Shown: positions 5,808 to 27,608 of the stretch, one piece after another
Layout of the letters: each line of letters opens with the position of its first letter
How positions within the stretch are numbered: position 1 is the stretch's first letter
Virus record (IMG/VR): IMGVR_UViG_3300025018_000442
Span: 1 to 29,045 of that record
From: a virus
Lineage: Duplodnaviria; Caudoviricetes
Direction: 5' to 3' (one strand)
Length of the DNA stretch: 29,045 nt
The notes under the pieces: model-generated
What the model was told of the DNA's origin: nothing
The model's input: the letters and a program-made list of their open reading frames with translations, nothing else
The model's database searches: none
Program-made: the position numbers and the translations under genes

Positions 5808-6077
5808 TTAGTAGACTTGCGGGCCGTCGCTCTTTTGCGCGTCGCGGCGCAGGGCGGCTTCCTCCTGGTCCATGTTTTCCTCCTGCGCGGTGTCCTGCTT
5901 TACGGGCTGGCCGTTCACAGTTTCCACCTGCAGATAGGCTTCCTCGCCCTCGATGCGGCTCACGGTGGCGGTGCCGCTAAAGTCCACGCTGTCACCCATC
6001 GCGGGGGGCGTGGCCTGGCCTTCGCCCTCTCCGGGCATTGCAAGTGCCGCAGTGGGCACACAAATTTCTGATTTCAT
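5808..6077 (-). CDS. Small acidic protein sharing a helix motif with the scaffold
   Basis: 89 aa; C-terminal ENMDQEEAALR matches scaffold ENLDQEEAALR. Confidence 0.65.
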   Translation of the reverse strand: MKSEICVPTAALAMPGEGEGQATPPAMGDSVDFSGTATVSRIEGEEAYLQVETVNGQPVKQDTAQEENMDQEEAALRRDAQKSDGPQVY

Positions 6078-6142: not shown

Positions 6143-6189
6143 AAAAAAGCCGGGCCGCTCGTGGGCGTGGGCCTCGTGGCGGCCCGGCT
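6143..6189 (-). terminator. Rho-independent terminator after the major capsid gene
   Basis: On the minus strand an 11-bp stem AGCCGGGCCGC/GCGGCCCGGCT followed by a T run. Confidence 0.7.
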
Positions 6190-6215
6190 CGTGGTTACGT
6201 TTCAGTGGCCCTCAA

Positions 6216-7202
6216 TCAGGCAAACGTGGTTTTGCAGCGGGTGACGACATAGCGCTTCTGCGCCAGCACCTTCGACACCGCGTAGGCACTCCACGCGGGG
6301 ATGATGAACTGGTTGTGCGGGTCGCTCTTGTCGGGCTTGTCCAGGATCGTGATCTTGGGCTTGAAGGCACTGTTGCCCCCGGCCAGATCCACAAACCCGA
6401 TGGCTTCCTCCCCCAGCGTGAGCACGCAGTAGATCGCGCCGCTGGCAGTGTAGGTGCCGGCGGAATCGGCCACGCTCGCGTCGCGGTAGGGGGTGGTGGC
6501 CTCCACGTAGCGGGTGCCGTAGAGCCGGCCCAGCTCGCGCTTGAACAGCTGTTTGGCCCCGGCATACTTCGCCGGCTCTTCCCACTTGGTGTGCTGCACC
6601 AGGTCAAAGGAGATTTCCGGCGGCACCACGGTGATAAAATCACCGTCGCCAAACGGCGTGGCCTTGCTGGTTTTCAGCTGGGTCACGGCCGCAAGGCCCA
6701 GGATGGGGGTCCAGGGCGAGTTGGCCGCGCTCAATGCCACCAGGGCATTGAAGTTGGCCGCCCCACCCGCATAGCGGTTGTGCCCGGTCGTGGCCTGGCC
6801 GGTCACCAGCTCATTGCGGATGAGGTTGTCGCAGAAGTAGCCGGCGGAAAGCCCCATCTTCTTGGTCCCGCTTTTCAAGCGGTCGAAAAAGCTGGTGAGT
6901 GAGAGGCGGTTTGAGATTTTCATCTTGTCGCCCCAGAACTTCAGCTGCGCGTCGATGTAGCCCAGGTCATTGGTGGAAAACGTCGTGTTCTCCACCGTGT
7001 CCTCGGCCAGTTCGATCACGTCGTCCGCGTCGCCGTCCGGCTCAATGAAGAACCGCACGGTGTCGGCGCCCTGCCCCTGCGGCAGGCCCTCCTTGGTGGT
7101 GAATTGTTCGAGCACTACAGTTTCCTGCAGCGTCTTCAGCATGCGCTTCGAAAAGTGCTTCTGATAGGTGTCTGTCTGGTTGGTGGTGAGTTGAATTGCC
7201 AT
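6216..7202 (-). CDS. Major capsid protein (HK97 fold, N4-gp56-like)
   Basis: 328 aa after scaffold; motifs LPQGQGADTVRF, ELGRLYGTRYVE, DKSDPHNQ; followed by a terminator. Confidence 0.85.
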   Translation of the reverse strand: MAIQLTTNQTDTYQKHFSKRMLKTLQETVVLEQFTTKEGLPQGQGADTVRFFIEPDGDADDVIELAEDTVENTTFSTNDLGYIDAQLKFWGDKMKISNRLSLTSFFDRLKSGTKKMGLSAGYFCDNLIRNELVTGQATTGHNRYAGGAANFNALVALSAANSPWTPILGLAAVTQLKTSKATPFGDGDFITVVPPEISFDLVQHTKWEEPAKYAGAKQLFKRELGRLYGTRYVEATTPYRDASVADSAGTYTASGAIYCVLTLGEEAIGFVDLAGGNSAFKPKITILDKPDKSDPHNQFIIPAWSAYAVSKVLAQKRYVVTRCKTTFA

Positions 7203-7258: not shown

Positions 7259-8302
7259 TTAGCCTCCGCCCCTTGCATCGGCCGCCATGGCTTGTTCGCG
7301 CAGCTCTTGCTCCGCTTCATCCAGTGGCAGGTCGTTGATCTTGCGTTCCGCGGGCTTGTGGCCCGGGCCGCCGGGGTGCAGTGAGGTCAGTTCCGTGAGT
7401 CGGGAAATTTCCTGCTGCGCATCGGTCAGCTGTTGCTCCAGGTCGGGCACGCGGTTGGCCTGCAATTGCAAGCCGGCGATTTGCACGGCATAGTTGATGC
7501 CGTCGCCCGAGGTGTGGAGAATCGGGAATTCTTTCAGCAAGCGGGTTACCTCCGTGCGCATTGGCGTGCCTTCCTCGGCCAGCTCGGGATGTTCTTTCCC
7601 GAGCTTTTGGAGATTGGCCTGCCAGTGCTGCTGCATGGCGGCTTGTTCCTGCGCAGTGATGCGGCCCCCGGTGGGCAGTTTGATCAACTGCCCCTCGTCG
7701 GCTGCTCCACCCTGCTGCTTTTGTTCCTCGTCGCGCAGTCGCTTGGCCACTGCCAGCGCCTTGTCGCGCGCCTCCAGTTTGCCCTCGGCCTCAAAGTCTT
7801 TGGCCGCCTCGTCGTATTGCTCGGCGGTAAATCCGTTGTGCTTTGGTTTCTCCGGTGGTGTCGCGCGCTGCTGCTTGGCCTGCTCGATCTGCCTGCGCTC
7901 GGCTTCCAAAGTTTCCCGCTCTTTTTTGAGCTGGTCCTTTTCCGCCGTGATCTGTTTCCACGCCTTGTCCTGCCGCCGTTTCGATTTCTCGTAGGGCGTC
8001 AGTTTCGGGTCGTCGTCGTCGCCCTTTTCATCGGGCTTCGTGTCCTTCTGTTCCTTGGCCTTTTCGGCCTCGGTTTTGTCAGCTGACTTTTGCTCTTTTT
8101 TGCCGGCGTCGGTTTTGTCCTTCGTCGGTTTATCTGTTTTTTTCGTGGTTGGCTCCACGTCGCCGGCCGCCTGTTTGCCGGTGTTTACATCGTCCAACAG
8201 GGTCTTGTCCTCCGCGCGCGGCGGGTCGATTTGCATCGCCTCGTTGCGCAGGGCGGCTTCCTCTTGGTCGAGGTTTTCCAGGTCGTTGTCTTCTTGGTCC
8301 AT
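7259..8302 (-). CDS. Capsid scaffolding protein
   Basis: Highly charged, low-complexity, coiled-coil 347 aa between portal and capsid; GGAG upstream of ATG. Confidence 0.75.
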   Translation of the reverse strand: MDQEDNDLENLDQEEAALRNEAMQIDPPRAEDKTLLDDVNTGKQAAGDVEPTTKKTDKPTKDKTDAGKKEQKSADKTEAEKAKEQKDTKPDEKGDDDDPKLTPYEKSKRRQDKAWKQITAEKDQLKKERETLEAERRQIEQAKQQRATPPEKPKHNGFTAEQYDEAAKDFEAEGKLEARDKALAVAKRLRDEEQKQQGGAADEGQLIKLPTGGRITAQEQAAMQQHWQANLQKLGKEHPELAEEGTPMRTEVTRLLKEFPILHTSGDGINYAVQIAGLQLQANRVPDLEQQLTDAQQEISRLTELTSLHPGGPGHKPAERKINDLPLDEAEQELREQAMAADARGGG

Positions 8303-8310
8303 TTTCTCCT

Positions 8311-10547: not shown

Positions 10548-11978
10548 TTAAAAGGCTCCTGCGTCCATGCCGGCCATCTGCTCGGCTTCCTCCAGTTCCC
10601 GCACCTGTTCGTAGCGGCTGGGCAGCACGCCATGGTGTTGGTTCTCCAGATAGTTTTTGCTCGTGAGCACCGGATAATCAAACGCCACGCCCACCACCGC
10701 GTCCGCGTGGTTGGGGCTCGGCTGCCCGCTGCGGCGCTTGGGCTGCAGCTGCAGTTTGCCATCCTCCCGGCCAAACTGTTTCACCCCGGCCACCAGCACA
10801 AAGTTTTGCTCCCGCGTGCAGGCCTGCCGTTTCAGCGTCTCATCGTGCGGCAGGATCCATGCGCACTGGCCCACCTGCTTGGCAAAGGTCCACCACTGTT
10901 GGGCCACCAGATTGAAATAGTGCGTATCCGTGGCCGGCGCATTGTTGCGCACACCCTCGATGTGGATGCCCCGCAAGTTCAGCGTGGTGATATACCCGTG
11001 CCCCGTGCCGTCCTCGTCGCCCTTCAGGATGTAGCCCTGTTCCTGCAGTGGGCGCAGTGTGCGCTCGAACCGCTCGGCCACGGCCGCCTTGTTGCCGTCC
11101 GGCTTCCACTCGTCGGCAATCTCGATCTTGTTGCCGTCGCGCTTGGCGACAATGCAAAGGTCGCCGCTGTCGGCAAAGTCGCAGAACACCTGCCGCATGC
11201 CGGTCAGCCAGCGCGGCGGGTTGGCCAGGCAACGCTCGTAGTCGTCAAAGGCCACGATTTTACCCTCTTCCTTGCCCTTGGCAAACTGCCCCAGGATCAT
11301 GGAGCGGTAAATGTCGGAGTCCTCCCCGTATTGCTCGCGCATGGCCGCGATGCGCTCGGGGGTGATGTGCGGGCAGTCATCAATCCCGATCTCGTGCTTG
11401 GCAAAGCGCGTGTTCTTGAACGCGTCGTGAAACCGCCCAAAGTGGCCGCCGGGGCTGCTGATATACAGCAGCATGGTCGGGTTGCAGCGGTCGGCCGCCA
11501 CAAAAATGTCGTCCGCGATTGACTTGGCCTCGTCCAGTATGATCAGCAGGTGCCGGCCTTCGGCCAGGGCCGCGTGGAACCCCTCGAACTTGGCCCCGCT
11601 GTCCGTCGCAAAGCCCAGTATGCGTCCGCCATGGCCGTCCTCGATTTCCGTGTCCTTGAAAGTCCAGTGGCCAAACTTTTCCTTGTCCTGCTCCAGCCCG
11701 GCAAATATCTGCGTGCGCACCGCCCGGAACGTCGCGCTGGTCAATACCACTGTGCTGCCGGGGAATTCGTGCAGGCACCATTCGGCCAGGGTCGCAATGA
11801 TTATGCTGGTCTTGCCGGCCTCGTTCGGGGTCACGGCGGCCGTGGGCCGGCCGCTGGCCACGTCGGCCATGACAAACGCCTGCCACTTGTAGAGCCGTTT
11901 TTTGCGCACTACCACGCCAAACTGGATGGGCGACAATCGCGCCTTGGCCTGCGGTATAGTGGCCGTGGTCGCTTCCAT
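10548..11978 (-). CDS. terL: Terminase large subunit
   Basis: Walker A TPNEAGKT, Walker B LIILDEA, coupling motif ISSP, RNase H-like CDFADSGD and SPNHADA. Confidence 0.92.
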   Translation of the reverse strand: MEATTATIPQAKARLSPIQFGVVVRKKRLYKWQAFVMADVASGRPTAAVTPNEAGKTSIIIATLAEWCLHEFPGSTVVLTSATFRAVRTQIFAGLEQDKEKFGHWTFKDTEIEDGHGGRILGFATDSGAKFEGFHAALAEGRHLLIILDEAKSIADDIFVAADRCNPTMLLYISSPGGHFGRFHDAFKNTRFAKHEIGIDDCPHITPERIAAMREQYGEDSDIYRSMILGQFAKGKEEGKIVAFDDYERCLANPPRWLTGMRQVFCDFADSGDLCIVAKRDGNKIEIADEWKPDGNKAAVAERFERTLRPLQEQGYILKGDEDGTGHGYITTLNLRGIHIEGVRNNAPATDTHYFNLVAQQWWTFAKQVGQCAWILPHDETLKRQACTREQNFVLVAGVKQFGREDGKLQLQPKRRSGQPSPNHADAVVGVAFDYPVLTSKNYLENQHHGVLPSRYEQVRELEEAEQMAGMDAGAF

Positions 11979-12635
11979 TTAGTTGCGGCCTCCCACCATG
12001 TCGGGCATGACGACCGGCACCCCCTGCCGGGCCAAATCCATCAGGTGTTCGCGGTCCTCGTCGGTCACCACGCTGAATTTCAATTCCCCCTCGATCTTGA
12101 TTTTCAGTTTGCCCAGCAGCGCAGCCAGCAGGGTCCCCTCGGCCCGGGCCTGGCTCGCGTAAAGCTTTTCGTCGCGCTGGGCCCGGTCGCGCTTTTGCTC
12201 GTATTCAATCCGGTCTTTGGCGTTCTTGCCGTTCTCGTTTTTGAATCCCGAAACGATAAAGGTTTCCGCATCCTTCACCGTTTGCGCTGCCTCCATCACC
12301 TTGGCATGGAAAATCACATAGCGTTCATACGTCGTGCGCACAATCTGCGCGGCGTCGTTGGCCACCTTCTCCGTGCACCGCCGGTAGAACGCAAAAACCT
12401 TCGGTTTTCTCAAGGTTTCCGAGGCGATTTGCCCCGCGCTCTGCTCGGAATATCCCGCTTCCACGGCAGCGCGGGCGCATTGCCCGTGCTCCAGCATGCG
12501 CATCACAAACACCATTTCCCGGCGCGTGAGTTCTGCCACTCCCTCCGGCAGTTCCTTTATCCCGCAGGCGGCAAAACTACGCTCGATCTCCGGTAGCGTT
12601 AACTGCAGCGGGCAAGGGTTCTCGGTTTGACTCAC
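11979..12635 (-). CDS. terS: Terminase small subunit
   Basis: LTRREMVF..ARAAVEAGYS..A..IASETLRKPKV is the classic TerS HTH motif; abuts terL. Confidence 0.85.
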   Translation of the reverse strand: MSQTENPCPLQLTLPEIERSFAACGIKELPEGVAELTRREMVFVMRMLEHGQCARAAVEAGYSEQSAGQIASETLRKPKVFAFYRRCTEKVANDAAQIVRTTYERYVIFHAKVMEAAQTVKDAETFIVSGFKNENGKNAKDRIEYEQKRDRAQRDEKLYASQARAEGTLLAALLGKLKIKIEGELKFSVVTDEDREHLMDLARQGVPVVMPDMVGGRN

Positions 12636-12744
12636 GAGAACTACCGTGGGCCCGGCCAGCCTGTCGGCTCAATCGTGCCACTGTTCCCGTTTGCTCTCGT
12701 TTTAACTCGCGCTGTCTGTTGCGTCCCTTCGGTCAGAAAAGAGG

Positions 12745-12800
12745 GCCGAACTTGCGCTAAAGCCGACACCTGCAGCGCGGCTTAGCTCTGGCTGTTAGGC
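12745..12800 (+). mobile_element. Integron-type attC site 1
   Basis: GCCGAAC-TTGC-GCTAAAGCCGAC...GCGGCTTAGC-TCTGGCT-GTTAGGC: R''/L''/L'/R' boxes, extra base on the left arm, 56 bp. Closely resembles canonical aadA-type attC architecture. Confidence 0.8.
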
Positions 12801-13132
12801 TCCCGCGCTCGCAGCGTTGGCAGAACTAAGTCACGCATCATCTGCCGTGCTTCGACGTAAGAGAGCAGGTTCGTGCCCACTCGATTCGGCCCTTGCCTCG
12901 TGGCGCATAGATCAGAGCACACGCTATCAGGTAGCGGCCATCGTAGAAATTTCTCTGCCAGTTCATCGGCAAGTTTATCCATTGCGTCCGGCTTTAGTGG
13001 CACATCCAGTCGGAAGCTGCGCGGGGCTCCCGGCGTTGGTCCTTTGTCGCCGCAGTTCGCGCAGAATGTCGGGTCTTGTTCGCTGGCCTTGAATTTCTTG
13101 CAGGCCCAAGTTTTGTGTTTTTGCTTTTTCAT
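12782..13132 (-). CDS. Cassette A gene, hypothetical (N-terminal Cys cluster; C-terminal FLRWPLP..GTNLL domain)
   Basis: 116 aa; the last codons PNSQS* are read from attC1. Confidence 0.7.
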   Translation of the reverse strand: MKKQKHKTWACKKFKASEQDPTFCANCGDKGPTPGAPRSFRLDVPLKPDAMDKLADELAEKFLRWPLPDSVCSDLCATRQGPNRVGTNLLSYVEARQMMRDLVLPTLRAREPNSQS

Positions 13133-13141
13133 AAATTCAGA

Positions 13142-13198
13142 GCCTAACCAGTCGGTCCATGGGACGCGCTTTGCGCGTCCCTGACCTTAGTGTTAGCC
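13142..13198 (+). mobile_element. Integron-type attC site 2
   Basis: GCCTAAC-CAGTC-GGTCCATGGGACGCGC-TTT-GCGCGTCCCTGACC-TTAGT-GTTAGCC: 5-nt spacers, two unpaired bases (C, T) on the left arm, 57 bp. Confidence 0.9.
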
Positions 13199-13465
13199 CT
13201 ACCGCTGGCGCACATATAAGGTGAAGTTCCGAGGCGTTGGATCCGGCGCCCCCTTGTGCTCGTGGAATTCGCGCTCTTGCACGGTCCACTCACCGGGGAG
13301 GTGAGCGTCAATATCTTCCGAATGATAGCGCGGATTTACGATCCGGTCTCCTACCTGTGCGTGCAACAGATCGAGATTGAACGTTTGCCTTGCGTCTCCG
13401 ACGTCCATTCCAAAGTCGTCGACGGGCTGAATCCAAATGTGCAGTGGAAAGTAATCTTGTGGCAT
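13199..13465 (-). CDS. Cassette B gene, hypothetical
   Basis: 88-aa ORF exactly filling the space between core sites; a sampled 60-nt line (13321-13380) is 50% GC, lower than the phage backbone. Confidence 0.7.
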   Translation of the reverse strand: MPQDYFPLHIWIQPVDDFGMDVGDARQTFNLDLLHAQVGDRIVNPRYHSEDIDAHLPGEWTVQEREFHEHKGAPDPTPRNFTLYVRQR

Positions 13466-13474
13466 AAAAAAAGA

Positions 13475-13492
13475 GGCTAATGGTCGTTCGGC
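13475..13492 (+). mobile_element. Collapsed attC remnant (R'' and R' only)
   Basis: GGCTAAT-GGTC-GTTCGGC; the left box complements GTTAGCC (13192) at 6/7 positions and the right box complements GCCGAAC (12745) at 7/7. Confidence 0.6.
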
Positions 13493-13887
13493 GTAAGAAG
13501 GGGCATGACCGAAAGGTCCACTTTGCTGCCGTGGTCAAGGTAGAGATTCCACGCGCGCCGGCCGTGCGGCTTGATTGCGGCGCCGGTGGCGTCGTGCACG
13601 TCCTGCTGGCGTTCGCGCTCGTTGCGCAGGATCTGCTGCACTAGGTCGTCGTTGTCCGGAAACTGCCGGCGCGTAATGCCCTCGTAGTCGAGTGCCCCGA
13701 TGTGCTGCATCAGTGCGTCGCGCAGTTCCTCTGCCGTGACTGCGGCGTCTGTCCATGGGCATGCGATCAGGTCAAGGTCGGTTGTGACCGTGCCGTGGAT
13801 GGCCAAAGCATAGCCGCGGGTGCGTGCGACCTCGCACAGCCCGTGGTAGAGCGTCGCGTAGAAGGGGGCGCGGGTAGGTGGTTTCAT
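13477..13887 (-). CDS. Small nucleotidyltransferase-fold-like phage protein
   Basis: GYALAIHGTVTTDLDLIACPW resembles the hG[S/T]x(n)DxD motif; later VDLSVMP could give a third acidic residue; ATGA overlap with the upstream gene. Confidence 0.55.
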   Translation of the reverse strand: MKPPTRAPFYATLYHGLCEVARTRGYALAIHGTVTTDLDLIACPWTDAAVTAEELRDALMQHIGALDYEGITRRQFPDNDDLVQQILRNERERQQDVHDATGAAIKPHGRRAWNLYLDHGSKVDLSVMPLLTPNDH

Positions 13888-14591
13888 TGTGCTTTTACCG
13901 TCGCATTTTTGATCCATTCGATTCGCACCGCATTGGGCAGCCCCGGCAGGTGCGCTATAAAATCCCCCGGCTGCCACGAATACGGCTCGCGGCCGGTGCC
14001 TCCGTAAAGCGTGTGCGGGTAGGCATTGCACTGGCGCTGGGGTATCAGCTTTACCATTACCGCGCTGCGGTTCAGCCAGCGCTCCAGCCGTTGCAACAGC
14101 GCGGGCGATGGCGGTTCACCGCCTTGTTTCAGCCGGCCTACTTTTTGGGTGTAATCGGCGTAGTTCATGGCCTGCGACAATTCGATGTTCAGCGCGTCCT
14201 GCTCGTTGTTGGTGGGCCGGTCCCGGTGGGCGCATACCTCGCGCAGCAACGTTTCGATGGCCGGGCAGCGGCGCAACAGCATCACATCGCTTTGCAGTCC
14301 GTTGCCGTCTGCGGCCACCACCAGGTCGGCCGCCGGGTCGCACAGTTGCCGGGCGTCAATGGTGTGGTTGGTGATCAGTGCGTCCGTGCCGGTAAACAGC
14401 AGCCACTCGTCCGCGGCCATGCTTTGCAAAGCGGCCAGCCAGCCCTCGGGCCGTTGCCAGCAGGTCACCGGGGCAGTCAGTCCTTGTTCGATCAATTCAA
14501 AGCCCCAGCGCGCGGCATAGGTCCGTTTGCCAGGCAGCGTCAGGTCGGCCAGGGCTTGGTAATCGTTGGAATGCTGGGTCAGCAGTTTCAT
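13884..14591 (-). CDS. Glycosyltransferase, GT34 (MNN10/GMA12)-like
   Basis: YAARWGF, EWLLFTGTDALITN, DGNGLQSDVMLLR, NEQDAL, PQRQCNAY, WQPGDFIAHLPG in the family order. Confidence 0.8.
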   Translation of the reverse strand: MKLLTQHSNDYQALADLTLPGKRTYAARWGFELIEQGLTAPVTCWQRPEGWLAALQSMAADEWLLFTGTDALITNHTIDARQLCDPAADLVVAADGNGLQSDVMLLRRCPAIETLLREVCAHRDRPTNNEQDALNIELSQAMNYADYTQKVGRLKQGGEPPSPALLQRLERWLNRSAVMVKLIPQRQCNAYPHTLYGGTGREPYSWQPGDFIAHLPGLPNAVRIEWIKNATVKAQ

Positions 14592-14800
14592 TTTGTCAGC
14601 CTCCGGGCAAAACGTATCTCGGCGGCGCTCGCGCGCGTGTATTCGGGGTGATCAGCCAGCCATTGGTGCGCCTGGCGCAGGCTGGCCCGGCCGCCGGGCA
14701 TCTGAAAACCAAAGCTTTTCATGTCGTAGACATACGACGGGTGCCGCAGCAGCAGCCCGGCCAAGCCCTTTACGTCGTGCAATTCGTCCAAATCTGTCAT
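14588..14800 (-). CDS. Small HTH-like DNA-binding protein
   Basis: LHDVKGLAGLLLRHPSYVYDMK..GF pattern; coupled overlaps on both sides. Confidence 0.6.
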   Translation of the reverse strand: MTDLDELHDVKGLAGLLLRHPSYVYDMKSFGFQMPGGRASLRQAHQWLADHPEYTRASAAEIRFARRLTK

Positions 14801-15477
14801 GGTTGCATCGCCTCGCGGGTTTCGTTGAGTCCTTGTTTGATCACGTTGCGCCGGCTCATCAGGGTGTCGTAGCGCGTGCGCTTCTCTCCGGTCGGGGCGA
14901 CGTTGTAGGCCACGCCACCGGGGCGCAGCAATTGCTCCAGCTCGTGCTCGATCTCCCCCAGTTCCTCGCGCAGGGCCTTCGCCCGCCGCTCGGGAGATAG
15001 CGTTCGCCGGCAGATTTTCGGGGGCAAAGGCGAAGCATCCGGCCCCCCGCGGTGCGGGGGGTTTGGGGGGATTTCTTTCTTTCTTTCTTTCAGGCGCGGT
15101 TTGGGCGGCGGGTCAGGGTCGGTCAGGTCCAGTTCCGGGTCGTCGTCCGGGGCTGGGTAGAGTGCCTGTTTTTTCGCCATCCTTTGGTCGTATCGCATCA
15201 CTTGGCCATATCCCTGTCCGTCGGAGGTGTAGAGCTTTACGAGGCCGAGGGCGTGGCATCGCGCCAGCATCTCTTTCACGTCTCGCTCGCTTACCTTGTT
15301 CAGGATCGGTGCATATAGTCCCGCTCGCAATATTGCCGGGGTGGCATCAAATCGACCGTAGTCGTCTGCCATCGTTAAAAGTCCGTAGTAAAAATCTCGT
15401 TCGCGCCAGGTGGCCTTCGCAAAGCGTGGGCTGTTGCGTATCGCATGGCGGATCATTCTCCCCGCGCGCTGGCTCAT
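14797..15477 (-). CDS. Phage replication initiator-like protein (N-terminal winged helix)
   Basis: FYYGLLTMADDYGRF..GLVKLY..G..Y N-domain and KERKKEIPPNPP linker typical of phage initiators. Confidence 0.65.
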   Translation of the reverse strand: MSQRAGRMIRHAIRNSPRFAKATWRERDFYYGLLTMADDYGRFDATPAILRAGLYAPILNKVSERDVKEMLARCHALGLVKLYTSDGQGYGQVMRYDQRMAKKQALYPAPDDDPELDLTDPDPPPKPRLKERKKEIPPNPPHRGGPDASPLPPKICRRTLSPERRAKALREELGEIEHELEQLLRPGGVAYNVAPTGEKRTRYDTLMSRRNVIKQGLNETREAMQP

Positions 15478-15794
15478 GCGGCGGCCTCCGGGGCCCCCAG
15501 CATGGCGTCAAACATGGCACCGCTGGGTTTCAGGTGGTAGGTTACTGCGCGGCGGTGGATGCCGATTTTATCGGCAATGCGCTGGCTCGGCCAGTTCATG
15601 GCATCAAGCTGGGCAATCTCGCGCAGCTGATCCTGGGTGATCTTGCGCAGCGGGTGCGGGTGGTGGCCCGGCCGGTGGAAAATTTTGATCAATTGGCGCG
15701 CCTGCCCCATGGCCAGCACGGCCTCGGCGCTGTTGCCCTCCACGATCGCGCGCAGCAGGCGCAGCGCTTCACATTCACCGCGCTGGTGCTTCAT
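15474..15794 (-). CDS. HTH domain protein
   Basis: C-terminal PSQRIADKIGIHRRAVTYHL HTH; start chosen at ATG 15794 (15824 possible). Confidence 0.65.
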   Translation of the reverse strand: MKHQRGECEALRLLRAIVEGNSAEAVLAMGQARQLIKIFHRPGHHPHPLRKITQDQLREIAQLDAMNWPSQRIADKIGIHRRAVTYHLKPSGAMFDAMLGAPEAAA

Positions 15795-15912
15795 GCTCGG
15801 CGGCCTTTCGTCGGGCGTTCCCATGGCTGCAGGTTGCGCACGGGTGGTCGGGGTGCGGTCAGTGGCTCCGGGGGCAAGGCCAGCGCCACGGTCACCAGGT
15901 AGATCAGGCAGG

Positions 15913-16545
15913 TCAGCACGGCGCTTCCTCCCTCGGGTGTTGGTTCACGCGGTCGATCTCGCGGGCCTCGGGCGGGATCCATCCAAGGCCCAGCGCGCGC
16001 AGGATTTCGAGCTCGCTTTCGCCGCGCCACACTTCGCCGTCCAGATATTCCACCGTGGGTTTGGCACTGCCGGCCCCGGCCGGTTTGGTTATGGCGTAGC
16101 GGCCGCCGCGCATCAGCCCCTTGTAGGGGGCAAAGTGGTAGCCCTTTTGCTTGGCCAGTTCGGCCAGCCACACGTTGTGCTCGCGGCTGCCGGTCATGGC
16201 CAAAAGCCGCATGCCAAAGTTGCCGGGTATGTAGCCGGCCAGGTCATTGATCGCCGTCCGTGCCATATACAGGTCCACCTGCACGCCATTGGCCAGCAGC
16301 AGCTGCACAATCTGTGGCCCGCTTTTGATCACGCGGGTGTTGGGGTTGGCCCGCACCCGCGCTTCGATCTCCGGGCGCAGGCCGTCCTTGGGCAGCAGCA
16401 CCAGGTCAATGTCGCTGCAGTGCGGCCGCTGCCGGCGCACACTGCCGGCAATCTCGATCTGCGCACAGTAGCCGGCCAATTCGCTGCGGATCAGTTCCGC
16501 AATTTTTTGCGCCGTGGCCAGTGGGATGGTTTGCCCCTGGCTCAT
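15913..16545 (-). CDS. polX: Minimal family X DNA polymerase (palm + thumb only)
   Basis: AGSVRR..SDIDLV, VQVDLY, MTGSREHN, ELEILRALGLGWIPPEARE; 210 aa from ATG 16545. Confidence 0.88.
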   Translation of the reverse strand: MSQGQTIPLATAQKIAELIRSELAGYCAQIEIAGSVRRQRPHCSDIDLVLLPKDGLRPEIEARVRANPNTRVIKSGPQIVQLLLANGVQVDLYMARTAINDLAGYIPGNFGMRLLAMTGSREHNVWLAELAKQKGYHFAPYKGLMRGGRYAITKPAGAGSAKPTVEYLDGEVWRGESELEILRALGLGWIPPEAREIDRVNQHPREEAPC

Positions 16546-16886
16546 GTTTCCACTTCCTCCAGTGCTTCCGCTGCATTGTGGCGCGGCGGTGCCACCTCGG
16601 CGGCCAGCACGCGCAAAAATCGTATTTCCCCCTTGTGCACCCCGTGTTGTATGTAGGGCCGTGTGGCCAGTTCGTAGTCGATCTTTATCCCCCGGCCGCG
16701 CTGGGCCTCGCGCTCCAGATAGTCGCACACCGTGGGGTCCTCGGCCTCGCAATTCCAAAAACTGGGCTGGCGGTGGCTGTCGCTCGTGGCGATGGTCAGC
16801 AGGATCTTTTTCACCATGCTGCCCGGCACGTAGGCTGGGCTGGCTTCCTTCACCACGCCACCGGTTATCGTGCCATGGTTCATCAA
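16542..16886 (-). CDS. ssb: Single-stranded DNA-binding protein-like (OB fold)
   Basis: MNHGTITG..FWNCEA..GRGIKIDYELATRPY pattern and acidic tail. Confidence 0.6.
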   Translation of the reverse strand: MMNHGTITGGVVKEASPAYVPGSMVKKILLTIATSDSHRQPSFWNCEAEDPTVCDYLEREAQRGRGIKIDYELATRPYIQHGVHKGEIRFLRVLAAEVAPPRHNAAEALEEVET

Positions 16887-17947
16887 TCAGCCCTCCTTTC
16901 CAGCACCTGCTTGACCATGGCCGCGATTGCCGCCGGGTGGATGCTGTCGAGCACGTGGCAAAACTGGCTGCGCGCGCAGTGCGCCTGCGGCCACATTTTC
17001 GGCCGGCCATGGTGGCAGCAGCCGGCGCACTCTCCCCTGCCCTCGATCGGCAGCACCGTGGGGTAGTATTTTACCCGCACAATCGCGGGAAAACTCCCAT
17101 AGAGTGCCACGCAGGGGATGCCCAAAGCCCCGGCCACATGCACCAGGCTCGAGTCCGGGCACACCAGGCAATCGCAATCGGCGGCCAGCGCCATGCTCTG
17201 GCGAAAATTCGGGGCCGGGTTTGCCGCCGGCAAAACCTGCACGCGGTCGCTCAGGGCGGCCGTTATCTGCACCGGGTGCCGGCCCGGCTCGCCAAACAGG
17301 CGCAGTCCGCACCCCATGTGCAGCAGCACTTTCAAAAGGTTGTGCACCTGCGGGTAGCTGCGCACGGGGCTGCTGGCGGCCAGCTGCACCCCAACCACGT
17401 GCTTGCCCTTCGGCCGGGGCCACTTCAGCAGCGCGGCCGCCTTTTCAAATTCGCTCAGCCACAGTTCGGGCTGCCGGTCGGGGATGCATAAAAACGGAAA
17501 TTTTCTCCAAAAACACTCCAGCGCGTGTTCCGTGGCCGGATGCTCGGCGTCTTCCACCGTGCCCTCCAGGCTCACCACCGCGTCGTAGCCGCGCAGCAAG
17601 TCAGTGCGCAGCGGGTAGTCGATACATTCGTGCACAAAGTGCAGGCCTTCCAGCACGGTGGCATTGCTTGGCACGGTGCACACACTCACGCGCTGGCCCA
17701 GCTGGTGCAGCGCGCGCAGGATGGGCGTCAGCATGATCAGGTCCCCCAGTCCACCGGGCCGGATTACCAGCACGTTTTTTCTTTTCTTGTCCCATTCCCG
17801 CAATACGGGGGCCGGATGCAGTTCCACCCGGCGGGGATTCTGGGCCAGCCACAGGCCGGCATTCACCGTGTCAGCCAGCCAGCTGCCCCGTGGCAACTGC
17901 CGGCCCCGGCCAATCTCGATGGGTTCGTTTACGATCAGCGTGTGCAT
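16883..17947 (-). CDS. Glycosyltransferase family 9 (ADP-heptose:LPS heptosyltransferase-like)
   Basis: VLVIRPGGLGDLIMLTPILRAL and DSSLVHVAGALGIPCVALYGS; C-terminal CxxC..C cluster. Confidence 0.88.
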   Translation of the reverse strand: MHTLIVNEPIEIGRGRQLPRGSWLADTVNAGLWLAQNPRRVELHPAPVLREWDKKRKNVLVIRPGGLGDLIMLTPILRALHQLGQRVSVCTVPSNATVLEGLHFVHECIDYPLRTDLLRGYDAVVSLEGTVEDAEHPATEHALECFWRKFPFLCIPDRQPELWLSEFEKAAALLKWPRPKGKHVVGVQLAASSPVRSYPQVHNLLKVLLHMGCGLRLFGEPGRHPVQITAALSDRVQVLPAANPAPNFRQSMALAADCDCLVCPDSSLVHVAGALGIPCVALYGSFPAIVRVKYYPTVLPIEGRGECAGCCHHGRPKMWPQAHCARSQFCHVLDSIHPAAIAAMVKQVLERRAD

Positions 17948-17951
17948 GGCT

Positions 17952-18806
17952 TCAAATCGCAAAAGGCAGGGTCTTGCATTTGAATCCACAGGCCTGCCGG
18001 TGGCCTCCACCGCCATATTTCACTGCGATGGGGGAAAAATCTATCTCCGGTTTGCCCGGCACTCCGTAGAGTGATATCCGCCACTGGCCCTGGCCGTCGT
18101 AGCCAAATCCAAGGCACCCTTCGTGCTCCGGTTTTAGACCGGCCGTAAACAAGTGGCTGTTGTAGCGCGCATGGTTGCAGGCCAAAAAGCACCGGCCTTC
18201 AAAGTTCACGGTGAATCCGTTGTGCTTGATAATGGATTCGTTTTGCTTGCCCTGGGCGTAGGCCACGGCGCGGCCGTCCTTCAACAGCGAAAGCACAACA
18301 GCTGAGCGTTTGCCGGCGGTCAGCAATTCCTGCCATAATGCCGGCGTCAGTTCGCAACTGCGCAGGGCGTGCTGAAACAAATCCGTGTCTGGGTCGCGCT
18401 TGTCCCAGATATCATATTCGCCGGCCAGTCGCACGGCGTGCGGTTCTTCCACGGTGCGGTCGTAATATTGGGCCTTGGTCGGCAAGGCAAAGCCGTTGGG
18501 CTTATTAAACCACTGCCAGGCTAAGCGGCAAGCGGCCACTCCGTCGATGCGGTAGCCGGGGATTGTTTCGGGGTATTTTTCAATCGCACTTTTGTGGTGG
18601 TCTATCCACACCAAGCCGGGGTGCTGCATCAAACCATCCACGCTTATGTCAATCATGTAGAGTGTGGCCGCAATGTGCACCTCTGGCACCGGCTCGCCAT
18701 AGTCCCAGCCGATATATTCCGCAGTTTCACCAAAGGCTTGCCGGGCGATTTCCCGCGAAAACAGGCCGTCAAAATCGGCCCGGTGATAGATTACAATCGT
18801 CTTCAT
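17952..18806 (-). CDS. DHH/DHHA1 family phosphoesterase
   Basis: YHRADFDG, MIDIS, WIDHHKS, YDIW, GGGGHRQACGF. Confidence 0.9.
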   Translation of the reverse strand: MKTIVIYHRADFDGLFSREIARQAFGETAEYIGWDYGEPVPEVHIAATLYMIDISVDGLMQHPGLVWIDHHKSAIEKYPETIPGYRIDGVAACRLAWQWFNKPNGFALPTKAQYYDRTVEEPHAVRLAGEYDIWDKRDPDTDLFQHALRSCELTPALWQELLTAGKRSAVVLSLLKDGRAVAYAQGKQNESIIKHNGFTVNFEGRCFLACNHARYNSHLFTAGLKPEHEGCLGFGYDGQGQWRISLYGVPGKPEIDFSPIAVKYGGGGHRQACGFKCKTLPFAI

Positions 18807-18810
18807 AAAT

Positions 18811-19692
18811 TCATGCGTGTTTCCCGAAATAGCGGCACCATTCGCGGCCGGCCCATTCTCCCATGGGCACGGGCACCCCGTTGCCAATCTGCCGGTATTG
18901 TTCCTGCCGGGTGCCGGCAAAGGTAAAGGAGTCTGGCACTCCCTGCAGGCGGGCGTATTCCCGCACGCTGTAGGGGCGCACGCCTTTTTTGTAGCGGTTA
19001 TCAGCCACCAGCCGGGTGCTCACATCCTTGGCGTAGTGCGCCACACAGGTGGGGGCCACGTCGCCGCGCGCGGCATCGCTCACAATGGGTTTGTCCCGGT
19101 AGCGGCCGCGCAGCCGGCGGTAGACATACGCGGGAATTTCCACGTCCGGTTCGCTCTCCAGTATCTCGACCAGTGGCACGGCGCGCGTGGCCTCGGGCGG
19201 CCGCCAGGCAAAGGGCCGCCGGCTGCCAAAAATTATCAGCCGGTTGCGCTTCTGAGGCAGCCATAGTTCGGTGGCTACCGGGCAAAACACACTCACGTAG
19301 TAGTCGGGCAGCTTGGTCATGGCCTCCATTACCACGGTGAATTTTTTCATGCCGGGCACATTCTCCAGCAGGTAGCCTTCGGGCCGGGCAATCGCCAGCA
19401 GGCGAAAAAAGTGCAGGTAGAGTTCGTCCCCCGTGCGCACCCCGTGGATGTCCCCGATGGGCGAATATTTCGTGCACGGGTAGGTCGCGGCCATCACGTG
19501 GCAGCCCGGCTGTTCGGCCACCAGTTTCTGTTTCACATCGGCCTGAATTACGGCGTGGGTGAAATTGCGGCGCAAAGTCGCGCAGCATGTCGGGTCGATC
19601 TCCAGGCTCTGCTGCACGTCCAGCCCCCCGCGGTGCAGGCCCAGGTCAAACAGGCCGGCCCCGGAAAAATAACTGTTCACGCGGATGCTCAT
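18811..19692 (-). CDS. DNA (cytosine-5) methyltransferase, orphan
   Basis: FSGAG (motif I), YPC (IV), ENV (VI), QKRNR (VIII), ARLQG (IX), YRQIGNGVP (X). Confidence 0.95.
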   Translation of the reverse strand: MSIRVNSYFSGAGLFDLGLHRGGLDVQQSLEIDPTCCATLRRNFTHAVIQADVKQKLVAEQPGCHVMAATYPCTKYSPIGDIHGVRTGDELYLHFFRLLAIARPEGYLLENVPGMKKFTVVMEAMTKLPDYYVSVFCPVATELWLPQKRNRLIIFGSRRPFAWRPPEATRAVPLVEILESEPDVEIPAYVYRRLRGRYRDKPIVSDAARGDVAPTCVAHYAKDVSTRLVADNRYKKGVRPYSVREYARLQGVPDSFTFAGTRQEQYRQIGNGVPVPMGEWAGREWCRYFGKHA

Positions 19693-25422: not shown

Positions 25423-25604
25423 TGCTTGGCCCTCCGGGTCCGGCGGCGGGCAAATTGCACTTCTGGCGCCGGGCGGTTTGCTATTTGCTGCCTCAAAATT
25501 TGCCCGGCAATATAGCTCACGCTGCGGTCCTGCTTCAGTGCACGGGATTTGATTTCATTCGCTACGTGCTCCGGCACACTGGTGGATATTACTTCGTTGG
25601 GCAT
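25419..25604 (-). CDS. Ribbon-helix-helix regulator (Cro-position)
   Basis: EVISTSVPEHVANEIKSRA..RSVSYIA..IL RHH pattern; first gene of the leftward operon. Confidence 0.75.
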   Translation of the reverse strand: MPNEVISTSVPEHVANEIKSRALKQDRSVSYIAGQILRQQIANRPAPEVQFARRRTRRAKQ

Positions 25605-25685
25605 CTTAAGACTTAGTGAACTTCTAAGACTTAGGATGTGTTTTCTCTTGCGTCAACTCTTTTTCTTACAATTCTTATAAGTATT
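25605..25685. promoter_or_regulatory. Divergent promoter/operator region
   Basis: AT-rich; TAAGACTTAG at 25607-25616 and 25625-25634 (the second within the palindrome CTAAG-A-CTTAG); TTGACG on the minus strand at 25651-25656. Confidence 0.65.
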
Positions 25686-25994
25686 GTGGCAACTAACTCT
25701 GTAGGTCTAGGCAAGGAAGTGATATCCGCGAGCGTCCCTCAGGCTGTCGCCATGGAAATTATTCGGCGGGCCGAGTTGCTCAAATGGTCCAAAAGCAAAT
25801 ACACGGCGGAATTGCTCATCAATTGGTATGAGCAAGGTTGTCCTCCAATTTCGTCCGCCGACGAAATTTTATATAATCACGAACTAAAAGTGGCGGAGGA
25901 ACAGTTGCCCTACAAAAGTGAGGCGGCAGAAAAGCCGCAAGGGGGAGCAAGCGGGTCAACTTCTCCTGTTCCCCCTGTCAAACACGCCAGTTGA
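25686..25994 (+). CDS. Ribbon-helix-helix regulator (repressor-position)
   Basis: The only convincing plus-strand gene; EVISASVPQAVAMEIIRRA..SKS; GTG 25686 preferred over 25638. Confidence 0.7.
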   Translation: MATNSVGLGKEVISASVPQAVAMEIIRRAELLKWSKSKYTAELLINWYEQGCPPISSADEILYNHELKVAEEQLPYKSEAAEKPQGGASGSTSPVPPVKHAS

Positions 25995-26483: not shown

Positions 26484-27608
26484 TCAATTGCCGCTTGGGC
26501 GCAGTGCGGCCCATTTGCGGGCCTCCGCGCGGGTGCGCAGGTTCAGGTAATGGCGGTGGATCATGGCTTCGCTGGTGCCGGCCTCGCGGGCGGTCAGGGC
26601 ATCGCTGCCGGTCAGCACGGCCCGGTTGCTGATAAAGGTATGCCGGCATATATCCGGGGCCCAGTGCACCTTTGCCGCGGTGGCGATTTCCTCGCGGCCG
26701 TGCCGGCTCAGCGGGGGCACGCTCGCGGGTGCTCCGGCGGCCTTCAGCCAGGCCAGCGCGGCCGGCATCAGTGGCACGGTGCGGTTGGCCCGGCCCTTCA
26801 ATTTTCCACCCTCGATGCGCGCAAACGGGTGGCGGCCGTAGTGCAGCCGGGTTTCCTCGATCTCGCTGGGCCGGGAACCGGTCCACAACAAAACGGCCAA
26901 AGTGCCCAGCCATTTGCCCTGGCGCATGGTCCGGGCGGCCGTCAATACGCGCGCGGTTTCCTCCACATTAAACACGGGCTTGCGGCCATGGGGCACCTTG
27001 GGCCGGGCCAGTCCCTTCAGCGGGTGGTAGGGTATCAGCTGGCGCTCCATCAGCCACGTGCAAAAGGCACTCACGGCATTCAAATCATTGCGGCGGGTCT
27101 GGGGGTGGGCCTTGCGGGCGCGCAGTGGTTCCACGCTCGCGCGGGATATGTCGCCCAGGTTGGTCACGCTGGCCAGTCGCACCCAGAGCCAGAGCCGGGT
27201 GGATAAATTTTTCACGGTTTCATCGGCCAGCCCGTCGTTGCGCCGGTCCTCCAGAAACGCCTCGATCTGCGGGGCGATCGGTTGCACGGCGGCCGCGTGG
27301 CCGGTCACCTGTTCGGTGTAAAGGTTGGCCAGCTGCAGCAGGCTTGTTTCCAGGTGGCCGGCCAGGTCCAGCTTGCGCCGCGCGGCGATGGCGTCGGCTC
27401 TCACGTTTGCATCGAAATTTACCCCCGCCATTCCCTCTGCAGCAATCTGCCGGTTAAGTTCTCGCTGGTAATTTTTTGCCTCCTCCAAATTCAAAAAGTG
27501 CTTGCGCATTTTGCGGGGACGGCCGCGGCTGTCGCGATTTACAAAGTCCAGATATACCACTTGCCACATGGGCAGCGGTTTGGTGATTGCGTAGAGCTTA
27601 GCGCTCAT
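26484..27608 (-). CDS. int: Tyrosine integrase
   Basis: TGSRPSEI (R), KLKGR (K), DICRHTF, AGTS, HRHY (Y); N-terminal arm-binding and core-binding regions; next to att. Confidence 0.92.
   Translation of the reverse strand: MSAKLYAITKPLPMWQVVYLDFVNRDSRGRPRKMRKHFLNLEEAKNYQRELNRQIAAEGMAGVNFDANVRADAIAARRKLDLAGHLETSLLQLANLYTEQVTGHAAAVQPIAPQIEAFLEDRRNDGLADETVKNLSTRLWLWVRLASVTNLGDISRASVEPLRARKAHPQTRRNDLNAVSAFCTWLMERQLIPYHPLKGLARPKVPHGRKPVFNVEETARVLTAARTMRQGKWLGTLAVLLWTGSRPSEIEETRLHYGRHPFARIEGGKLKGRANRTVPLMPAALAWLKAAGAPASVPPLSRHGREEIATAAKVHWAPDICRHTFISNRAVLTGSDALTAREAGTSEAMIHRHYLNLRTRAEARKWAALRPSGN

Follow-up and report, generated by a model that had tools for sequence, protein, structure and literature searches.

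The window analyzed here is a whole virus record of 29,045 bases, nearly all of whose genes lie on the minus strand, among them genes for a portal-like protein, the large and small terminase subunits, a replication initiator, a DNA methyltransferase, and a tyrosine integrase. Upstream of the terminase small subunit gene (terS; 11979 to 12635, minus strand; PF03592, phrog_51), a backbone gene, lie two attC sites with their top strands on plus, attC1 at 12745 to 12800 and attC2 at 13142 to 13198. They are associated with three minus-strand genes: gene A (12782 to 13132; 116 amino acids, a phage orphan family), gene B (13199 to 13465; 88 amino acids, function unassigned), and a nucleotidyltransferase (NTase)-like gene (13477 to 13887; 136 amino acids). 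A glycosyltransferase family 34-like gene (13884 to 14591, minus strand; PF05637, E 1.8e-5) is part of the same insert and has no adjacent attC, and beyond it is a small backbone gene that looks HTH-like by eye (14588 to 14800, minus strand).

Anatomy and polarity of the attC sites

Both sites have R'' and R' boxes with AAC and GTT plus an L''/L' inverted repeat. attC1 consists of R'' (12745 to 12751), a 4-nt spacer, L'' (12756 to 12763), L' (12780 to 12786), a 7-nt spacer, and R' (12794 to 12800), and attC2 of R'' (13142 to 13148), 5 nt, L'' (13154 to 13161), L' (13180 to 13186), 5 nt, and R' (13192 to 13198). In both, two unpaired bases lie on the left arm, the one with the plus-strand AAC. 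Since the arm that bears AAC and the unpaired bases defines the top strand of an attC site (Nivina 2016, PMC5027507), the top strand of attC1 and attC2 is plus and the recombining strand is minus. The minus strand also has the better fold energy (-10.9 versus -10.0 kcal/mol for attC1 and -17.1 versus -15.0 kcal/mol for attC2). The attC2 minus strand forms a near-perfect hairpin that folds better than 200 of 200 shuffles (z -5.1), and the attC1 fold is not above its shuffles (z -0.4; 67 of 200 shuffles equal it), its two strands being equally likely to adopt the recombinogenic shape (0.64 versus 0.65). A strict attC finder, which returns a count and not positions, gave 3 matches in the window versus a mean of 0.22 in 60 shuffles, 0 of which reached 3. 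The preliminary description had placed the attC top strand on plus and both cassette open reading frames (ORFs) on minus, the reverse of the classical layout. The unpaired bases and the minus-strand fold agree with this, A and B are conserved genes, and A, B, and the NTase-like gene are all on the bottom strand.

The attC consensus has central spacers of 5 and 6 nt. attC1 (4/7) and attC2 (5/5) depart from this rule, which 37 of 39 comparable viral sites keep, and finders built on 5/6 spacers miss attC2 and the sites of phage TJE1. The 4/7 geometry recurs in P12002L_attC1 and in two sites of an Acidobacteriota record (L297), and we therefore dropped the idea that the attC1 spacers are a one-off mutation. 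The attC1-type 4/7 pattern occurs in 0 of 351 and 0 of 201 genomes, and no host family for 4/7 sites was found in them. The P12002L site (NC_028924, 30005 to 30059) is antisense; the two L297 sites (559 to 631 and 6182 to 6254) stand among mostly sense genes. Sites with 4/7 spacers are possibly a minor class.

Cassette A spans 12795 to 13192 and cassette B spans 13193 to 13486. attC2 belongs to cassette A, lies 9 nt ahead of the gene A start codon, and has an R'' that is the exact complement of the cassette A core (7 of 7); the cassette B core matches its R'' at 6 of 7 positions. The cassette architecture is therefore core, reversed gene, start signal, and attC, with the gene's own hairpin before the start codon and its 3' end towards the crossover. 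attC1 closes a 76-bp ORF-less stub (12719 to 12794). The 26 nt of this stub ahead of attC1 (12719 to 12744) are likewise ORF-less, and the core there matches attC1 R'' at the triplet only. attC1 and attC2 are on the same strand, 397 nt apart, in a contig from which intI is absent, and the locus is thus a CALIN as defined (at least two attC sites within 4 kb and no intI). Sequencing run X1, which may be the source run, has no differences across attC1 and attC2.

Cassette genes

Gene A continues past the crossover, keeping AAC in frame, to the TAA at 12782 to 12784 in the L' box of attC1, so that it does end EPNSQS-stop inside attC1, as first described. It has 37 homologues among 40 candidates, with a conserved core; a single-protein viral scan gave one weak locus, and the four closest homologues do not end PNSQS. 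Gene B stops at its own TAG (13199 to 13201), outside attC2 and just before the core, and all 6 of its 6 candidate homologues (53 to 93% identity) end at the same place or one residue past it. Genes A and B have no match in Pfam, PHROG, or NCBIfam, and the ESM Atlas also gave no function. Their plus-strand shadow ORFs likewise have no Pfam or PHROG match.

The NTase-like gene is conserved and ends TPNDH-stop inside a collapsed junction. Its predicted structure (pLDDT 84) has pol-beta-type nucleotidyltransferases as its best Foldseek rows (best E 0.005, none at 0.001), and a PDB sequence search with the NTase alignment gave nothing; the structural model thus supports the NTase label weakly but consistently. 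In three relatives (L001 to L003), a conserved attC lies upstream of the gene and the sequences part right after AAC at the 3' end. The hairpin and the gene downstream of it therefore move together, and this establishes the polarity independently of the unpaired-base rule. By this comparison, the NTase-like gene itself appears to be a cassette gene whose attC is missing here. NTase relatives occupy differing phage contexts with sharp edges. In L001 (2591 to 3260) the NTase cassette lies between terL and portal genes, and in L555 (1405 to 2371) attC-like halves seem to contain the start codons, which would make both gene ends site encoded. Relatives of gene A and of the NTase-like gene are found in viral contigs, and an adjacent site was detected in 5 of 60 loci, 5 of 5 being antisense (one or two of them doubtful).

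Edges of the insert

The third junction (13475 to 13492, plus) has an R''-like heptamer, 4 nt, and a G/TT core; the L boxes and the hairpin are missing. The heptamer matches the cassette B core at 6 of 7 positions, and the fold is no better than shuffles (z about 0). The hairpin may have been lost by slippage, and folded attC sites are reported to be easily deleted (attG preprint, 10.1101/2022.09.11.507474).

The left edge of the insert is a G/TT at 12718 to 12724 (plus), a tentative attG- or attI-like site that is likely to be the point of entry. In run X1, a minority contig (depth 8.3) shares 12687 to 12720 and diverges right after G-T-T at 12718 to 12720, where depth is 40.7 to the left of the branch and 30.5 to its right, and continues with the core heptamer of the L001 to L003 NTase cassettes. 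A break after GTT has a chance of about 1 in 64, and one contig in one run is weak evidence for entry at 12718. Other low-depth divergent contigs of run X1 over the early region likely represent a second strain with a common late module. In an array-free relative (L453; terS 75% identical), a match to the 14588 to 14800 gene (74% DNA identity) directly precedes terS, with neither an array nor the glycosyltransferase gene between them, and the DNA left of 12718 resembles, by eye, the spacer before terS in that relative. A metagenome scan with the 12700 to 12720 motif found the window's own record only, and runs X1 to X4, of which X2 to X4 cover short pieces only, gave no joint of an excised or shuffled cassette A or B. 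The G/TT at 12718 is without the attI-like motif common to IntI-bearing viral arrays.

An ancestral empty site had also been proposed, in which the NTase-like gene would end TPNSQS-stop at the same TAA. Joining 12794 to 13487 does give this end, which follows from the common frame and so is no demonstration of an ancestral empty site, and L453 has no attC at the locus. The core at 13486 also lies upstream of the NTase homologue in L555 and in 9 of 160 viral sites among the matches listed; as it recurs elsewhere, its match to attC1 R'' is no proof of an empty site either.

Phage genome and host

The phage's own tyrosine integrase (26484 to 27608, minus strand; phrog_1, E 1e-13) has no TIGR02249 match and is therefore not IntI. 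It is the sole integrase found in the 29-kb contig, which may be incomplete. A search for a Pc promoter gave one sigma-70-like match in 12500 to 14100, at chance level and beyond the array, and Rfam gave one match in 11500 to 15000, also at chance level. The host of the phage is uncertain: the best terL matches are Akkermansia phages (28 to 33% identity), and of 351 genomes in the phylum of a Luteolibacter record, presumably Verrucomicrobiota and taken here as the likely host phylum, 1 carries a terS relative. Two further terS relatives (L450, 95 to 1120; L451, 522 to 1202) have, a few genes upstream, a recombinase-like gene whose translation looks IntI-like by eye.

Elsewhere in the window, the early region at 13884 to 19692 is rich in accessory genes (two glycosyltransferases, PF05637 and PF01075, a pol-beta palm/thumb protein, and a C5 methyltransferase). 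A 62-nt repeat, 76% identical, at 5819 to 5889 and 8218 to 8309 lies between two structural-region genes 2.4 kb apart. The AT-rich stretch at 25560 to 25990, with a short plus-strand ORF (25638 to 25994) that has no Pfam match, is likely the immunity region.

Gene orientation at viral and bacterial sites

Viral contigs were scanned with two oriented attC patterns and GTDB genomes (6 of 64 parts) with the second of these, and all counts are among the matches listed. Matches were retained if the L boxes paired and the core folded; gene direction came from a codon-based caller, which is imperfect (it misses A and B in the window), and the patterns favor GC-rich sites. With the same pattern and script, the 126 listed viral sites (129 loci) comprise 115 antisense, 3 sense, and 8 mixed, whereas the 131 listed genome sites (126 loci) comprise 11 antisense, 96 sense, and 24 mixed. 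Pooling both viral scans gives 147 antisense, 4 sense, and 9 mixed of 160 listed sites, and merging shared flanks gives 98, 4, and 7 of 109 listed viral clusters. Distinct cores among these matches have antisense-to-sense ratios of 77:3 in viruses versus 11:88 in genomes (Fisher p 2e-34). A Shine-Dalgarno sequence with a start codon stands on the bottom strand beside R'' at 85 and on the top strand beside R' at 5 of 153 listed viral sites; the corresponding numbers for listed genome sites are 7 and 27 of 128. When 148 of the 172 flanking ORFs listed were scanned, 48 had a PHROG match, and 46 of those 48 are antisense; DNA methyltransferase, the best match in 11 of the 148, is the commonest named cargo among these listed matches. 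A caller-free test of stop-free frames did not favor the bottom strand at the 160 listed viral sites (23 bottom, 30 top, 81 both, 21 neither, and 5 too short) and is uninformative in GC-rich viral DNA.

Matches came from 20 of the 351 genomes of the likely host phylum. Five of the 31 matches examined failed the hairpin test, and the remaining 26 comprise 21 sense, 3 antisense, and 2 mixed. The sole NTase homologue in these 351 genomes (L555) is antisense and adjoins terL, so that the check for host homologues in normal orientation turned up none for this gene. Among the 11 genome sites scored antisense, four (L248, L249, L274, and L303) are scoring errors in which a sense gene ends at R'', two (L256 and L262) adjoin phage-like methyltransferases, and five (L271, L333, L337, L354, and L355) stay ambiguous. 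Two dispersed attC-like chromosomal sites in genome G353 (L532 and L547) are antisense and have bacterial-looking neighbors, a possible exception to the phage link.

IntI-bearing viral arrays and isolated phages

An IntI alignment gave 80 viral loci, and 14 of 15 tested pass TIGR02249. We analyzed 74 of the 80, leaving out the 6 weakest and keeping redundant copies in the counts. At least two sites are present in 19 of the 74, and 17 of these 19 arrays are antisense (L409 alone among the 17 being HMM checked); all lie upstream of intI with the top strand opposite intI, which is the classical geometry. One IntI locus, L432, has a sense array. Several IntI-bearing viral arrays have a common attI-like motif with a G/TT of the same polarity. 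This motif lies 50 to 135 nt before intI, ahead of the first cassette, in L378, L382, L384, L397, L419, L420, L424, and others. The cassette genes of these arrays point towards intI and may share its transcript.

The isolated phage PH101 (NC_029094, 75919 to 77990) has three sites, attC1 and attC2 at 75923 and 76533 with their top strands on plus and a further copy at 77935, and 20 of 20 annotated genes are on minus. The bottom strands of PH101_attC1 and attC2 are reported to recombine with IntI1, and the top strands less well (Qi 2023, PMC9892861). Because the bottom strand recombines and the genes are on that strand, the recombining strand is the coding strand in an isolated phage; this published assay, although made on other sites, supports the polarity assigned here. 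Phage TJE1 (NC_019930, 244 to 1519) is a counterexample, a sense array with 5/5 spacers. Its methyltransferase gene runs into the second site on the top strand.

The antisense layout is thus biased towards phages. That cassettes with genes antisense to attC form a phage-associated class had been suggested from the window's sequence alone, and the viral survey, the IntI-bearing arrays, and PH101 agree with this suggestion, the tabulated orientation being 115 antisense to 3 sense at listed viral sites and 11 to 96 at listed genome sites.

Stops and reading frame across the crossover

Genes of this layout end in three modes: before the core, at a TAA of their own core, or across the crossover with a tail and stop from the next site. 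Gene B is of the first kind, and gene A and the NTase-like gene are of the third. Among the 147 listed viral antisense sites, 27 had no gene call and 120 genes were scored. Of these, 29 read into the hairpin, 52 stop at the TAA of the core belonging to their own cassette, 2 at another place in the core, and 37 ahead of the site. AAC is in frame in 28 of these 29 listed read-in genes, and the commonest end, in 16 of them, is the L'' TGA (SA-stop). Only a 7-nt spacer brings the L'-box TAA into this frame, and 0 of 39 comparable viral sites have one (56 distinct matches, 17 of them without R''); in P12002L_attC1, with its 7-nt spacer, the TAA is geometrically in frame too. Bottom-strand stops are present in L'' of 61 of 87 distinct viral versus 35 of 121 distinct genome cores, and in L' of 63 of 87 versus 42 of 121, among the matches listed.

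The common trait is therefore that the crossover is read in one fixed frame; which tail follows varies with the neighboring site. The earlier proposal that attC gives a common C terminus and stop holds as to the single frame, found in 28 of the 29 read-in genes listed. It fails as to the tail, since PNSQS-stop needs a 7-nt spacer (0 of 39) and gene B stops outside attC.

DISCUSSION

Based on the anatomy of the sites, the viral survey, and comparison with published arrays, we consider it likely that the locus is a small, partly decayed cassette array of the integron type in a phage operon, with its genes reversed, that was probably served by an IntI from outside and is probably read from phage promoters. 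Within a striking class, it is a modest member in decay. The IntI, whether from the host or from a co-resident element, would recombine the folded minus strand, which is the coding strand; the array would start at the G/TT at 12718 in the backbone ahead of terS, its cassettes would be transcribed with the phage operon, and later hairpin losses would have fixed gene B and the NTase-like gene in place. The flip might have been kept because new cassettes are then read with the phage operon while host-type cassettes enter silent, a step that we put forward less firmly. The flip may also raise shuffling: attC folds best on the lagging-strand template (PMC5371416), and if genes are aligned to replication, as we assume, the coding strand would be that template.

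A misreading of the polarity, in which a Xer-like enzyme or the phage integrase cuts the other strand and the genes have the ordinary orientation for that enzyme, seems to us very doubtful. The spacers are non-canonical, the phage encodes a non-IntI tyrosine recombinase, and P12002L_attC1, with the 4/7 geometry, is the one of six sites that IntI1 did not recombine (Qi 2023, PMC9892861). Against this, the hairpin travels with the gene in L001 to L003, which fixes the polarity without the unpaired-base rule; the IntI-bearing viral arrays and PH101 agree on it; and the attC1-type 4/7 pattern is in 0 of 351 and 0 of 201 genomes, with the two L297 sites standing among mostly sense genes. The possibility that the phage took up ordinary host cassettes, inverted or in one block from a host integron, and that nothing is phage adapted, is more remote still and is largely refuted. 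Phages do take up integron segments (Qi 2023, PMC9892861), TJE1 is sense, and inverted insertion by top-strand recombination is known (Nivina 2016, PMC5027507). However, inverted insertion turns gene and site together and cannot explain a gene reversed against its own site, as found here, and we rejected it. Moreover, sites in the host phylum are mostly sense (21 of 26), the relatives of gene A and the NTase-like gene are in viral contigs, where the 5 adjacent sites in 60 loci are all antisense (one or two doubtful), and a DNA methyltransferase is the best match for 11 of the 148 flanking ORFs scanned, among the matches listed.

It is unlikely that attC is built to give all cassette proteins one common C-terminal tag and stop. 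The single frame of 28 of 29 listed read-in genes, 16 of which end SA-stop at L'', would fit such a design, as would the excess of bottom-strand stops in both L boxes of listed viral over genome cores, but 91 of 120 listed called genes never enter the hairpin, tails differ between homologues, PNSQS-stop requires the 7-nt spacer seen in 0 of 39 sites, and the enrichment of stops may reflect site lineage rather than selection. A rather more open matter is whether the locus has stopped moving, with dead sites left to act only as stops, spacers, or RNA hairpins. This may well be so, although we lean slightly against it. The third site is collapsed, the NTase cassette lacks its attC, the spacers are odd, the contig has no IntI, runs X1 to X4 (X2 to X4 as short pieces) have no joints, and folded attC sites are easily deleted (10.1101/2022.09.11.507474). 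On the other side, attC2 is a near-perfect hairpin with the 5/5 geometry of TJE1 sites, which recombined with IntI1 in a published assay (Qi 2023, PMC9892861), and the minority contig diverges exactly after G/TT at 12718. The question concerns present activity, and dead sites are compatible with the origin that we propose, an integron-type array with reversed genes.

We also advance, tentatively and as a possibility, that phages run a mirror-image cassette pool, governed by the same enzyme and strand rule as the host pool, with the two pools mutually silent; some phages would carry IntI and the common attI motif, and integrase-less ones would borrow the enzyme and open arrays at G/TT.

CALINs in phages are already in print, and the reversal of genes against attC appears to be the new part. 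The published phage CALINs (Qi 2023, PMC9892861) likewise have at least two attC sites, no intI, small accessory genes, and 5/5 and 4/7 sites, and the PH101 array is also antisense. They differ in that TJE1 is sense; in the accessible text of that paper, the TJE1 and PH101 arrays are called typical and their orientation against attC is unremarked. With the classical cassette (PMC5027507, PMC4889954) the locus shares the R''-L''-L'-R' hairpin, the unpaired bases on the AAC arm, complementarity between core and R'', and a promoterless single gene. Unlike in that cassette, the gene here is on the bottom strand with its own attC before the start codon, the C terminus can come from a neighboring site, and the locus has no intI and no clear Pc or attI. 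In the attG/SALIN system (10.1101/2022.09.11.507474), IntI places cassettes into short GWT motifs away from att sites, with possible later deletion of attC, which fits the 12718 edge and the collapsed site; those are classical cassettes in a bacterial chromosome, whereas here a phage array would have used 12718. The inverted-integrase integrons of Treponema (Cury 2016, PMC4889954) also have intI and cassette genes in the same direction, but there intI is turned against attC, and in viral arrays intI and attC are classical and the genes are turned. ORF-11 (PMC8876359) likewise crosses a crossover, at attI1, and takes its stop from the neighboring cassette core, but it is a top-strand leader peptide, and here a cargo gene is on the bottom strand. 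In the full-text literature searched, which includes few subscription papers, we found no description of genes reversed against attC in phages.

In integron theory, the choice of attC strand puts promoterless genes under Pc, and the phage class shows that this rule is reusable for phage operons. Surveys that assign to each attC the gene upstream of it on the top strand would probably miss or misassign such cassettes. Since assays on the sites of PH101, an isolated phage, already exist (Qi 2023, PMC9892861), the idea is testable at once. With this layout, phages would be able to gain and shuffle accessory genes, probably transcribed from phage promoters, by a specific and testable route. It also connects phages with the host integron system, in which anti-phage genes are stored (Kieffer preprint, 10.1101/2024.07.02.601719; also 10.1101/2024.07.02.601686). 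If the mirror-image pools are real, a phage operon would leave incoming host cassettes, many of which act against phages, unread, and a host integron would do the same to phage cassettes.
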